Assembly (NCBI GenBank): GCA_964610345.1
Contig: CAZSVQ010000001.1
Coordinates: 280 to 62,348, forward strand
Source of the DNA: an uncultured Candidatus Saccharibacteria bacterium
GTDB lineage: Bacteria > Patescibacteriota > Saccharimonadia > Saccharimonadales > JAGQNJ01
DNA length: 62,069 nt
Direction of reading: 5' to 3'
Shown: one piece after another, positions 35,686 through 37,991 of the stretch
How positions within the stretch are numbered: the stretch's first letter is position 1
Layout of the letters: every line of letters starts with the position of its first letter
Position numbers and translations under genes: made by a program
The notes under the pieces: model-generated
The model's input: the letters and a program-made list of their open reading frames with translations, nothing else
Databases searched by the model: none
What the model was told of the DNA's origin: nothing

Positions 35686-36117
35686 ATGAACGTTTTTGAG
35701 CGGTTTCCGTTACCAGAAATCCCAGAATCAAAGGAAGGTATTGCACCCGCAGATCAATTTGCCGAAGAAATTGAATTGCGGGTAGCTACCTTAAACGACT
35801 GTGTTGAAGATTTAATTGAGCGACGAATGACTTTTGCGCCCTACACTTTAATAACCATTGAGGGACAAAGGAATAATTTTATTCAACATTACTGCATGCT
35901 TAAATTTTTGAGTCAACGTAATTTACTCGATAGATATTATGAAGATGCTAGCGCTATAAGATATAAAAATAGAACCGACTGGGAGGTAGTGCTAAATCGT
36001 CCATTGTCCGGTACTAGTTTGACAGAAGAATATAGAATTGAAAGCCGAGAACCAAATAGTATGACAGATAGCGATAGGCACTTGTTTATTTTAAGATATA
36101 AACTTAATAAATTTTAA
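35686..36117 (+). CDS. Hypothetical cytoplasmic protein
   Basis: 143 aa ORF with reasonable coding appearance. No family recognised. Confidence 0.35.
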   Translation: MNVFERFPLPEIPESKEGIAPADQFAEEIELRVATLNDCVEDLIERRMTFAPYTLITIEGQRNNFIQHYCMLKFLSQRNLLDRYYEDASAIRYKNRTDWEVVLNRPLSGTSLTEEYRIESREPNSMTDSDRHLFILRYKLNKF

Positions 36118-36173: not shown

Positions 36174-36859
36174 TGGTGGGGGTGGTTGGAATTGAACCAA
36201 CGACCAATCGGTTATGCGTACCACTACAACTTTAGTTGCCCCTTTCGGGTTTGATGGTCTGGACTGTCTCTTCATCCTTCTTAGCCACTAAGGCTACGAA
36301 GGAGCCTGCCGTACAGTCTCTACACCTTCCCGCTGATAAGCGGGCTTGGCTCGGGATTGCCATTTTAAAGGGTTCCCCGAATTTGACAAGATATACTTAT
36401 CGGTTGCCCGATAAGCAGCCCTAAACAATTGTGCATATCTAGTATAAACTACAGTTATGAATAAAGAGTCTAGCTGCAAGATCTGTAGCAAAACCCTCAA
36501 AGGTAGACAAACATTCTTTTGCTCGATTAAATGCAAAAATGCTGCACATTAATCTTATCCAGCCCAGAATAAATGAGGGCTAGAACGCAAACTTCACTAT
36601 GTAGAGAAGCTTGGCGGAAAATGCTCAAAGTGCGGTTATGCTAAGAATCTTGCTGCTCTAGCTTTTCACCATTTGAATGGTAAAGAATTTCAGCTGGATG
36701 CCCGCGCTCTATCTAACCGTAGGTTGAATCCTATTCTAGAAGAGATCGCAAAATGCGTTCTACTCTGTCATAACTGTCATGCTGAGACACATAATCCCAG
36801 TTTAGACTTAGCTAAATTGTCAATTGAGCCGACTGCTCTAACCACTGAGCTACACCCCC
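36174..36859 (-). tRNA. tRNA with CAU anticodon (elongator Met or Ile2/lysidine type), interrupted by an intron; exons 36859..36827 and 36216..36174
   Basis: The joined exons give a perfect 76-nt cloverleaf: GGGGGTG-TA-GCTC-AGTGGTTA-GAGC-A-GTCGG-CTCATAA-CCGAT-TGGTC-GTTGG-TTCAATT-CCAAC-CACCCCC-A-CCA. G1-C72 is paired, so this is not an initiator. Overall it is closest by eye to E. coli tRNA-Ile2. Confidence 0.85.
36217..36826 (-). mobile_element. Group I (IC3-like) self-splicing intron in the tRNA anticodon loop
   Basis: The minus strand carries the conserved core strings GUCAAAUUCGGGGAACC (36371-36387), AUGGCAAUCCCGAGCCAAGCCCG (36341-36363), GGAAGGUGUAGAGACUGUACGGCAGG (36305-36330) and AAGAGACAGUCCAGACC (36256-36272). 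These closely match the Azoarcus tRNA-Ile and cyanobacterial tRNA-Leu introns. GNRA-capped hairpins are present (CUUAUCGG-GCAA-CCGAUAAG; CCC-GAAA-GGG). The exon ends in U and the intron ends in G. Confidence 0.8.
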
Positions 36860-36867
36860 TTGTATAG
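36457..36867 (+). pseudogene. Decayed HNH homing-endonuclease ORF, antisense to the intron
   Basis: A single frame reads MNKESSCKICSKTLKGRQTFFCSIKCKNAAH*SYPAQNK*GLERKLHYVEKLGGKCSKCGYAKNLAALAFHHLNGKEFQLDARALSNRR...KCVLLCHNCHAETHN. In-frame stops are TAA at 36550 and TGA at 36574. The tail of the ORF runs by chance through the tRNA 5' exon. Confidence 0.7.
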
Positions 36868-37057
36868 TTGTGAATTATATTCAACCATCATCAAGATTGT
36901 TAATAGTTAGAAAATAATTACAGAATTACAGATTATAAAGTGAACTTTATAATCTGGTGTAGCTAGGAACTTTGCTTAAATACTTAAAATTCATATGTAA
37001 GCAACAGAGTGGATTATAACAGAAAAACGATTCAGTATATAATGGTTACGGATAATT

Positions 37058-37501
37058 ATGATACAAAAAATAATTCAACAAACCCTACATTTTATACGTC
37101 GACTAACTGACATGCGTTTTTTGGGTCAAGTAATCTTCGTAATTATTATTCTGTTAGTCAGCTGGAGTACAGCCAAAGCTATTCAACAAAATTATGATAT
37201 TCAAAAACAAGTTGCATCAAAGCAAAAAGAAAACGATGTCCAAAAACTTAAAAACGAAAACTTAAAAATTAAGAATAAATACCTTGAAACAGATGAATAT
37301 TTAGAACTTACCGCTCGACGCCGGTTAGGCAAAGCGGCACCTGGTGAAACTTTAGTAATAATCTCTAAAGAAGTTGCATTGCGTAACACTGTAGAAAGTA
37401 GTATAAAGCCCGACGAGCAAATCCAGCAAGAAGCTGATGAAACCAAACCAACCTACCAACGCAACTTAGAGGCTTGGTCTAGGTTTTTCTTCCGTCACTA
37501 A
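37058..37501 (+). CDS. Septum formation initiator family protein (FtsB/DivIC-like)
   Basis: N-terminal TM, coiled coil, then DEYLELTARRRLGKAAPGETLVI. Confidence 0.6.
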   Translation: MIQKIIQQTLHFIRRLTDMRFLGQVIFVIIILLVSWSTAKAIQQNYDIQKQVASKQKENDVQKLKNENLKIKNKYLETDEYLELTARRRLGKAAPGETLVIISKEVALRNTVESSIKPDEQIQQEADETKPTYQRNLEAWSRFFFRH

Positions 37502-37881
37502 ATTTGAATTAGGTCTGAACTATTAACTTTAAAATAGTTTCTTGAAATTGGCTAACTATTAGGTAGCCTATGCCAAAAGCTATTAAAAAACTAATAGCCA
37601 GTATCAATAAATTGTGTGTTAAAGAATTTTCCACCTTCTTTTTCATACTTTAATATTAACAGAAAAAATAAATCCCAGATACAAATATTGGTTACAACAA
37701 TAAAAAAGATTCAGATAAAACGGGTCACTTTTGTTGTTTGCGGGACTAAGGCTGGTAACGAGTTGTCCGCTTTGTACTATGCTCGAAGTAAACTATTGCA
37801 CGCAGAAGTTTGCGAACGCACCTCGGACAATTATACTTTCTGAGAAAAACTGAGCCACAGAATCAAGCCTAGCTCATAATA

Positions 37882-37907
37882 TGAAAAAGACCCCACTTGG
37901 AGTGGGG
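37882..37907 (-). terminator. Rho-independent terminator downstream of tRNA-fMet (hairpin usable from both strands)
   Basis: CCCCACT-TGG-AGTGGGG stem, followed on the minus strand by TCTTTTTT. Confidence 0.65.
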
Positions 37908-37916
37908 TACTTTTCA

Positions 37917-37991
37917 TGGTTGCGGGACCAGGACTCGAACCTGGGACCTCGTGGTTATGAGCCACGCGAGCTGCCGCTGCTCCATCCCGCG
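37917..37991 (-). tRNA. Initiator tRNA-fMet (CAU), CCA encoded
   Basis: CGCGGGATGGAGCAGCGGCAGCTCGCGTGGCTCATAACCACGAGGTCCCAGGTTCGAGTCCTGGTCCCGCAACCA. It has the C1-A72 mismatch and strongly resembles E. coli tRNA-fMet. Confidence 0.9.

Follow-up and report, generated by a model that had tools for sequence, protein, structure and literature searches.

Group I introns in bacterial tRNA genes are rarities of cyanobacteria and a few proteobacteria. They are usually described as lacking an open reading frame, or ORF (PMC4033280), and it has been remarked in passing that tRNAs of the Candidate Phyla Radiation (CPR) can contain group I introns (PMC8172020). In the tRNA-Ile intron of Azoarcus, the guide pairs with CAU (PMC2241849) and the 3' exon is 40 nucleotides (nt) long (PMC13168695), and a cyanobacterial tRNA-fMet intron encodes I-Ssp6803I (Bonocora and Shub 2001, as cited in PMC3984707). 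Antisense His-Cys box endonuclease genes occur in Dir.S956-2 and Dsq.L2066, group I introns in the nuclear rDNA of protists (PMC9548176), and collaborative homing—a free-standing endonuclease combined with an ORF-less intron—is attributed to the cyanophage psbA/F-CphI pair in a citation given by PMC6083498. Here, we analyze a 62,069-nt stretch of DNA (hereafter the window) from an uncultured Candidatus Saccharibacteria bacterium (GenBank assembly GCA_964610345.1, contig CAZSVQ010000001.1, positions 280 to 62,348 of the forward strand), in which a 76-nt tRNA(CAU) gene on the minus strand is broken between U33 and C34 (U33/C34) by a 610-nt group I intron. From sequence comparison, we read this element as a self-splicing, IC3-like intron in the tRNA-Ile2(CAU) gene of a Saccharibacteria genome, belonging to a large, undescribed mobile family and carrying an endonuclease gene that has recently died—a reading to which we assign a probability of roughly 85%.

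A tRNA(CAU) gene split between U33 and C34

In its default mode, ARAGORN missed the interrupted tRNA(CAU) and called only two tRNAs in the window, a tRNA-Pro and an initiator-type tRNA(CAU). With introns allowed, the program returned a single tRNA(cat), interrupted at position 34 by 610 nt, and joining the exons gave a standard 76-nt cloverleaf with a CUCAUAA loop—the arrangement that an earlier note, made from the letters of the window alone, had proposed on the basis of two tRNA halves lying 610 nt apart on the minus strand. On that strand, the 5' exon (36859-36827) reads GGGGGTGTAGCTCAGTGGTTAGAGCAGTCGGCT and the 3' exon (36216-36174) reads CATAACCGATTGGTCGTTGGTTCAATTCCAACCACCCCCACCA. The predicted spliced product is identical, at 76 of 76 positions, to the uninterrupted tRNAs of two related loci, L140 and L204.

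The exact splice site was resolved by comparison across 81 related introns, in all of which the exon ends in GGCU, the intron ends in G and CAUAAC follows. The intron starts with something other than CA in 29 of them, which removes the CA ambiguity there and thus fixes the junction at U33/C34, where the earlier note had placed it together with the terminal G of the intron. A promoter-like site for the tRNA ends 15 nt ahead of its 5' end.

Conserved fold of the intervening sequence

The intervening sequence matches the Rfam model of group I introns (RF00028, Intron_gpI) at 36236-36457 on the minus strand, with 60.9 bits (E = 5e-13) over the full model length. This score, obtained in a check that the earlier note had suggested, lies above the gathering score of 50 bits, and relatives score between 50 and 81 bits. 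The match spans only the 3' third of the intervening sequence: the ribozyme corresponds to the 3' ~205 nt of the intron, and the 5' ~390 nt form the loop of a long, covarying extension of helix P1.

The fold of the core was derived from an alignment of 70 distinct ribozyme parts, from which RNAalifold recovered P2, P3, P4, P5, P6/P6a, P8 and three P9 helices; one spurious helix was replaced by the pseudoknotted P7. A pairing of the guide GGGC with GUCC returned by the program was set aside, as GUCC is the 3' strand of P7, which is pseudoknotted, and the exon—the true partner of the guide—is absent from the alignment. Over the 54 pairs in 11 helices of the resulting model, including the P3/P7 pseudoknot, 97.2% of the cells are paired, as against 31-45% when the partners are slid. 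Double changes occur in 39 of the 54 pairs, the last pair of P7 takes four pair types among the family, and none of 500 shuffles reached the observed values. The window keeps all family-invariant bases and 52 of the 54 canonical pairs, the two others belonging to P8, which pairs in a register shifted by one. The minimum free energy fold of a single mini-precursor sequence with the ORF replaced by GAAA contains P2, P4-P6, P8 and P9 (z = -5.0); as this calculation cannot show P1, P3 or P7, it is not counted among the evidence.

Four core strings quoted in the earlier note are all present in the window and fall in near-invariant columns of the 70-sequence alignment, and the J3/4-P4, P6 and J6/7-P7 strings agree with the group I consensus of Rfam. 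The GNRA-capped, P2-like and P9-like hairpins noticed then correspond to L2 (GCAA) and L9 (GAAA), with UAAA as the loop of the L9a hairpin. Judged by its RF00028 score and covarying fold, the intervening sequence is a group I intron, as first proposed, and its compact consensus structure, which includes P2 but lacks a P5abc extension, has GNRA loops capping P2 and P9 and is hosted by the anticodon loop of a tRNA, points to an IC3-like architecture.

The comparison also bore out the candidate guide GGGCUG, which pairs with exon bases C29-U33 (36831-36827) and the first intron base (36826). Across 76 distinct sequences, pairing is universal for U33-G, C32-G, G31-C and the first intron base and reaches 95% for G30, and U33 always stands opposite the second G of the guide, as a G-U wobble. 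Adjacent to the guide, the cognate strands of the P1 extension give an average duplex energy of -15.3 kcal/mol, compared with -6.9 kcal/mol for swapped partners (p = 1e-41), and the window's own duplex amounts to -10.5 kcal/mol; P1 would therefore be extended into a long helix with the ORF as its terminal loop. On the other DNA strand, the 5' strand of this extension encodes the last codons of the HNH domain described below. The earlier note had recognized the ribozyme core, and had overlooked both the extended P1 and the antisense HNH gene that make up most of the intron.

The evidence on the exons and the core bears directly on whether the interrupted gene is a dead tRNA pseudogene, with an intron that no longer splices and a functional tRNA-Ile2 elsewhere. 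The endonuclease gene of the window is already decaying, and ARAGORN in its default mode finds no other candidate in the window, a result that is silent on the rest of the genome. However, the two exons are undamaged and together match uninterrupted tRNAs of relatives at 76/76 positions, the ribozyme keeps its invariant bases and its helices, and a strong promoter-like site stands ahead of the tRNA. Moreover, 70 species retain the interrupted arrangement and show compensatory changes in it, which implies selection for splicing. We therefore consider a dead tRNA gene very improbable.

An antisense HNH gene within the intron

On the plus strand, antisense to the intron, a single frame runs from an ATG at 36457 to a stop codon at 36865-36867 with no frameshift across 136 codons. 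Its tail passes through the antisense 5' exon to a stop 8 nt past the tRNA 5' end; continuation of the frame through the exon, giving the tail IEPTALTTEL, is a feature of the window's subgroup, and in most members outside the Saccharibacteria the stop codon straddles the splice site, its last base being the complement of U33. The frame carries CxxC...CxxC, followed by CxxC...HH...N...CxxCHxExH, residues that are invariant in the family, and it matches HNH endonuclease families in PHROGs (phrog_2255, 6e-20). A search of 5.8 billion proteins returned 175 homologues with 65-90% identity, nearly all uninterrupted at 136-140 amino acids, and several from Candidatus Saccharibacteria. In addition, an AlphaFold model of an intact homologue with 90% identity (predicted local distance difference test score, or pLDDT, of 80) matched 57 predicted phage HNH endonucleases in BFVD at E ≤ 1e-3, the best at 1.7e-10.

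Within the window, this frame is broken by TAA at 36550-36552 (codon 32) and TGA at 36574-36576 (codon 40), which replace the family-invariant Q32 and R40. One C-to-T substitution accounts for each stop when the closest intact relative is taken as reference (TAA from CAA, TGA from CGA). All three standard stops are used in the window, with TAA and TGA ending 31 of the 39 long ORFs, and on these grounds the HNH gene of the window is, by its sequence, a recently inactivated gene. Continued expression through stop-codon readthrough or an alternative genetic code is hardly credible: the frame is otherwise unbroken over its 136 codons, and UGA is recoded in some CPR lineages, yet two different stops would both need recoding, both of them terminate long ORFs in the window, and the homologues carry ordinary CAA and CGA at the two positions. 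The last two observations also led us to reject an alternative code as an explanation for the in-frame stops. Elsewhere in the family, the ORF has a median ratio of nonsynonymous to synonymous divergence (dN/dS) of 0.14, and an open frame of at least 110 codons was found in 73 of the 90 loci examined. The protein is presumably a homing endonuclease that cuts intron-less tRNA-Ile2 genes in relatives, with both its activity and its target predicted from context.

The region ahead of the HNH gene has a conserved layout. A TAnAAT box is fixed 6 nt before the ATG across the family, and TATAAT is matched at five or more of its six positions in 38 of 53 sequences. Free-standing HNH copies retain the TATAAT-N6-ATG signal, so the motif belongs to the gene and not to the ribozyme; moreover, the 6-nt spacing leaves no room for a ribosome-binding site, and the HNH mRNA is therefore probably leaderless. 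At the start of the ORF, a conserved sense-strand UUCAUAAC (window 36457-36459, family-wide; 10/10 in L039) resembles the beginning of the 3' exon, CAUAACC. Its interpretation as a 3'-exon mimic, an RNA element or an operator was set aside, given that GTTATGA and TATAAT-N6 are kept in free-standing HNH genes without a ribozyme. Instead, UUCAUAAC is probably the start-codon context of the HNH gene, and it may provide an endonuclease binding site for autoregulation.

Table 1. Positions of the tRNA exons, the intron with its predicted helices, and the antisense gene in the window.
Feature	Positions	Strand	Basis
tRNA 5' exon, positions 1-33, 3' end ...GGCU33	36827..36859	-	ARAGORN with introns allowed; GGCU end conserved in all relatives
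Group I intron, 610 nt	36217..36826	-	ARAGORN i(34,610); RF00028 60.9 bits over 36236-36457
tRNA 3' exon, positions 34-76, CAUAAC start, CCA end	36174..36216	-	sequence and ARAGORN
Promoter-like site for tRNA: TTAACA, 18 nt, TATAAT	36874..36903	-	consensus scan 11/12; consensus match only
Internal guide sequence GGGCUG, P1 3' strand	36416..36421	-	conserved GGGC core directly 5' of P2
P1 extension 5' strand, intron +2 to +26	36801..36825	-	duplex energies
P1 extension 3' strand, 30 nt 5' of guide	36422..36451	-	duplex energies
Ribozyme core P2-P9	36217..36415	-	consensus fold and pair counts, 70 sequences
P2	36417-36394	-	overlaps guide by 2 nt
P3	36390-85/36310-05	-	consensus fold
P4	36380-75/36356-51	-	consensus fold
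P5	36371-70/36361-60	-	consensus fold; simple hairpin
P6	36350-48/36326-24	-	consensus fold
P6a	36344-40/36333-29	-	consensus fold
P7	36318-14/36266-62	-	consensus fold, pseudoknotted
P8	36304-36273	-	consensus fold
P9.0-like	36258-56/36222-20	-	consensus fold
P9	36249-40	-	consensus fold
P9a	36239-26	-	consensus fold
Terminal G (omega-G)	36217	-	G in 81/81 related introns
HNH endonuclease pseudogene, 136 codons, one frame	36457..36867	+ (antisense to intron)	translation, phrog_2255 6e-20
Promoter-like element of HNH gene: TAAACA 36422-27, 17 nt, TAAACT 36445-50, ACAGTT, ATG 36457	36422..36456	+	family geometry

Spread and probable mobility of the element

To place the element in a broader context, one genome per species was scanned (185,579 species), and intact HNH copies or relatives were found in 237 species-representative genomes; the host list and the counts of gene arrangement that follow refer to the best 80 of these 237. 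The complete genomes OZ246404.1 and OY782391.1 are among those that carry the element. Among these 80, CPR hosts include Saccharibacteria as well as Peregrini-, Gracili-, Peri-, Doudna-, Moran- and Howlettbacteria, and other hosts belong to Chloroflexota, Latescibacteria, Bdellovibrionales, Krumholzibacteriia and Armatimonadota. The HNH gene lies antisense inside an intron of ~600 nt at U33/C34 of a ~76-nt tRNA(CAU) in 76 loci and is free-standing in the remaining four, and copies at 55-65% identity extend across at least six phyla. Contigs with intact homologues (L011-L022) are partly syntenic with the window, sharing GT4, HxlR, flavin mononucleotide (FMN) reductase, the element and DivIC; each carries a tRNA(cat) that is interrupted at position 34, the intron being 595-612 nt long, recognized by RF00028 and occupied by an antisense HNH gene. 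The closest syntenic relatives are Candidatus Saccharibacteria, in keeping with the CPR-like host suspected in the earlier note. The anticodons that ARAGORN called for relatives (Leu-CAA/UAA, Ser, Thr and Phe) were rejected as junction misplacements, since the exons total ~76 nt and the 3' exon begins with CAUAAC after a G. Altogether, these loci appear to form a large family of mobile tRNA introns that is apparently undescribed.

Individual loci add some variety to this picture. In an Anaerolineae contig (L059 1527-2908), the intron at the same site measures 1,307 nt and is ~700 nt longer than the rest. A Moranbacteria contig (L093 2924-3243) has a 247-nt group I intron in tRNA-Phe(GAA), with 57.4 bits to RF00028, which adjoins the tRNA(CAU) intron and looks unrelated to it, so that at least two intron families reside in CPR tRNA genes. 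In the Latescibacteria genome (L060), the interrupted tRNA has an RNase P RNA gene (424-789; RF00010, 301 bits) at a distance of ~1.5 kb.

Several lines of evidence bear on mobility. First, intron-less alleles, which the earlier note had suggested looking for among relatives, do exist: an uninterrupted tRNA with the exact anticodon arm was found on at least 120 metagenome contigs, the tRNA-DivIC neighbourhood is kept in ~44 of these, and in L140 the uninterrupted tRNA is adjoined by a DivIC homologue with 68% identity. Second, ORF-less introns of 250-264 nt, in which a short hairpin stands where the ORF would be, occupy U33/C34 in L057 4336-4662 and L064 4645-4985 (Gracilibacteria and Peribacteria, one each), and both loci have a homologous free-standing HNH gene at 2501-2842, ~1.8 kb from the intron. 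Finally, host genes of the window and of the syntenic locus L012 show 73-78% nucleotide identity and a synonymous divergence (dS) of at least 1.6 or saturated, whereas the intron ORFs are 93% identical with a dS of 0.21 and the ribozymes are 95% identical—a contrast in dS which implies that the two genomes diverged long before their copies of the intron did. From the empty-site alleles, the ORF-less forms, purifying selection on the ORF and the dS contrast, we infer that the element is mobile. Separately, a free-standing HNH gene was seen directly beside an uninterrupted tRNA(CAU) in two Chloroflexota contigs (L075 2386-2923 and L096 2501-3015).

The same observations help to weigh whether the HNH protein has a role other than, or in addition to, homing, such as aiding splicing or regulating tRNA-Ile2 output in antisense. 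Unusually strong purifying selection and an abundance of intact copies contrast with the frequent decay that a homing-cycle model would predict, the intron sits at the same syntenic locus across many Saccharibacteria, and the antisense layout makes the HNH mRNA complementary to the pre-tRNA. However, loss of the ORF is tolerated in the window and a few relatives, ORF-less introns exist, both fold and motif correspond to phage HNH endonucleases, and presence/absence polymorphism combined with the dS contrast is what homing predicts. Such an additional or different role is, in our judgment, unlikely.

The surroundings of the element also differ among genomes. Three extra genes (cNMP-binding/Crp-like, an 84-amino-acid ORF and ChaB) lie between the tRNA and DivIC in L012 (3636-4982, corresponding to window 36860-37057), and by this comparison the neighbourhood is rearranged right at the intron-bearing tRNA. 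Directly upstream of the element, a 143-amino-acid ORF on the plus strand of the window (35686-36117) has no Pfam match; it is absent from L012, which has a 41-amino-acid ORF instead. Nine short public contigs with identical DivIC (L002-L010, window ~36825-37990) start a few bases from the exon/intron boundary and end in the initiator tRNA; sequencing runs that contain this DivIC gene include ERR8482637 and the SRR14092xxx series. Their ends fit branching of assembly graphs at tRNA sequences and possibly intron polymorphism, and would be explained equally well by shared tRNA k-mers.

Identity of the interrupted tRNA

A CAU anticodon is compatible with either tRNA-Ile2 or tRNA-Met. Across 5,426 E. 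coli genomes, the gene that best matches the interrupted tRNA is annotated as tRNA-Ile with anticodon CAT (84% identity over 69 nt), and the two share the D-loop, the variable loop UGGUC and the UUCAA T-loop. This result supports a tRNA-Ile2-like identity, in line with the resemblance noted earlier. A need for such a tRNA is suggested by AUA, which accounts for 2.4% of the codons in the window's long ORFs. Unlike the initiator-type tRNA described below, the interrupted tRNA has a paired G1-C72.

The possibility that the tRNA is instead an elongator tRNA-Met seems quite unlikely. ARAGORN labels every CAU anticodon as Met, a TilS gene was not found in the window, and the acceptor stem in Saccharibacteria has G4-C69 and G5-C68 and lacks C4-G69/C5-G68, the pairs that E. 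coli TilS uses. Nevertheless, most family members outside the Saccharibacteria have GGGCCC acceptor stems with precisely C4-G69 and C5-G68, and the closest E. coli tRNA, with its matching loops, is an annotated tRNA-Ile(CAT). Other tRNA(CAU) genes occur close to these elements: in the window, the initiator-type tRNA(CAU), with a C1/A72 mismatch and an RF00005 score of 60.5 bits, is located on the minus strand as well (37917-37991), 1 kb upstream of the interrupted gene, and a tRNA(CAU) with its anticodon at position 33 was found near the element in the Saccharibacteria relatives L025, L028, L042, L044, L049 and L101.

Proposed mechanism and implications

Drawing on group I chemistry for the splicing steps, we propose the following scheme. 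The pre-tRNA would be transcribed from the minus strand, and P1 would arise from pairing of C29-U33 and the first intron base with GGGCUG, which places the U33-G wobble where cleavage would occur. P1 would run on into a long, interrupted extension helix with the 5' ~390 nt of the intron as terminal loop, and the 3' ~205 nt would fold into the P2-P9 core. An external guanosine would then attack after U33, the terminal G (36217) would dock, and the exons would be joined into the 76-nt tRNA, whose C34 would be converted to lysidine to read AUA. The HNH gene, predicted to lie in the P1 loop on the opposite DNA strand, would be transcribed from its own promoter, embedded in the DNA that encodes the P1 extension and spaced 6 nt from the ATG. 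In relatives, the HNH enzyme would cut intron-less tRNA-Ile2 genes, and repair would copy the intron into them. In the window, two C-to-T nonsense mutations have killed the HNH gene and left the ribozyme intact, making the intron a passenger still obliged to splice.

A few points weigh against this scheme. Pfam, NCBIfam and PDB sequence searches do not recognize the HNH ORF, and the Foldseek comparison against PDB was not significant (best E = 0.14), although its weak matches are led by HNH nucleases. The -35 element of the family is weak and abuts the guide complement, and the copy of the HNH promoter in the window is degenerate, with 8/12 matches, under the scan threshold. TilS, sought as an ORF with the SGGxDS motif, is not encoded within the window. 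Additionally, the low dS of the intron ORF could come partly from constraint on the overlapping RNA and not from recent transfer alone.

A further, more speculative extension of this scheme—one that we regard as possible but doubtful—holds that the endonuclease gene invaded the P1 loop backwards, so that HNH expression and tRNA-Ile2 maturation, and hence AUA decoding, oppose one another in a built-in switch for low endonuclease levels. If so, the P1 extension would, as DNA, also serve as the promoter of a leaderless HNH mRNA. In many lineages, the stop codon of this mRNA would consist of the first two intron bases and the complement of U33, and the mRNA would be fully complementary to the pre-tRNA. 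Such opposition may also account for an ORF that remains open, and subject to purifying selection, even where the genome already holds the intron.

On the proposed reading of a mobile tRNA-Ile2 intron, the locus is one member of a family with representatives in at least 237 species-level genomes of CPR, Chloroflexota and other phyla, which would always target the tRNA decoding AUA. The stages of a mobile-intron life cycle are all represented in the dataset, from empty sites through ORF-less introns with a free-standing endonuclease and composite introns to a freshly inactivated copy in the window, so that the origin and decay of mobile introns become directly testable. As standard tRNA finders miss split genes, CPR and Chloroflexota genomes would wrongly appear to be devoid of tRNA-Ile2. 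Moreover, a small HNH enzyme with a predicted target in a tRNA gene may be of interest as a new sequence-specific nuclease.

Comparison with known systems

A literature search of incomplete coverage returned no description of the U33/C34 intron family, and an earlier description elsewhere is possible; within the literature searched, neither the insertion site in tRNA-Ile2 nor an antisense endonuclease gene in a bacterial group I intron had been reported before. The closest structural counterpart is the Azoarcus intron. The same tRNA species is interrupted in its anticodon loop in both cases, and both introns have a compact P2-P9 core with P9.0, no P5abc and GNRA-type tetraloops on P2 and P9. 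The earlier note was therefore right that the isoacceptor is the one that hosts the Azoarcus intron, but the insertion sites differ, at 33/34 here and 36/37 in Azoarcus. Unlike the 205-nt, ORF-less Azoarcus intron, which is inserted after the anticodon, the intron of the window lies 3 nt upstream and combines a long P1 extension with an antisense HNH gene.

I-Ssp6803I is a PD-(D/E)XK enzyme encoded on the sense strand. Unlike its host intron, which resides at another insertion site in an initiator tRNA, the intron of the window has an HNH enzyme encoded in antisense in the P1 loop. With regard to strand, the nearest parallel is provided by Dir.S956-2 and Dsq.L2066, where the endonuclease gene likewise lies opposite the ribozyme strand in a peripheral loop with its own internal promoter (predicted in the window), and where interference between antisense transcript and host RNA poses the same difficulty. 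Those introns are eukaryotic, however, and involve RNA polymerase II, polyadenylation, sometimes spliceosomal introns, His-Cys enzymes, P9-type loops and an rRNA host, whereas the element described here is bacterial and combines a sigma-70-like -10 box 6 nt from the ATG with an HNH enzyme, a P1 loop and a tRNA host. Finally, the pairing of an ORF-less intron with a free-standing HNH gene in L057 and L064 resembles the psbA/F-CphI arrangement, which has been proposed as a step toward a composite mobile intron. In that system the intron resides in a phage protein gene; in L057 and L064, the host is a cellular tRNA gene, and the free-standing HNH enzyme is a candidate for targeting the tRNA site.

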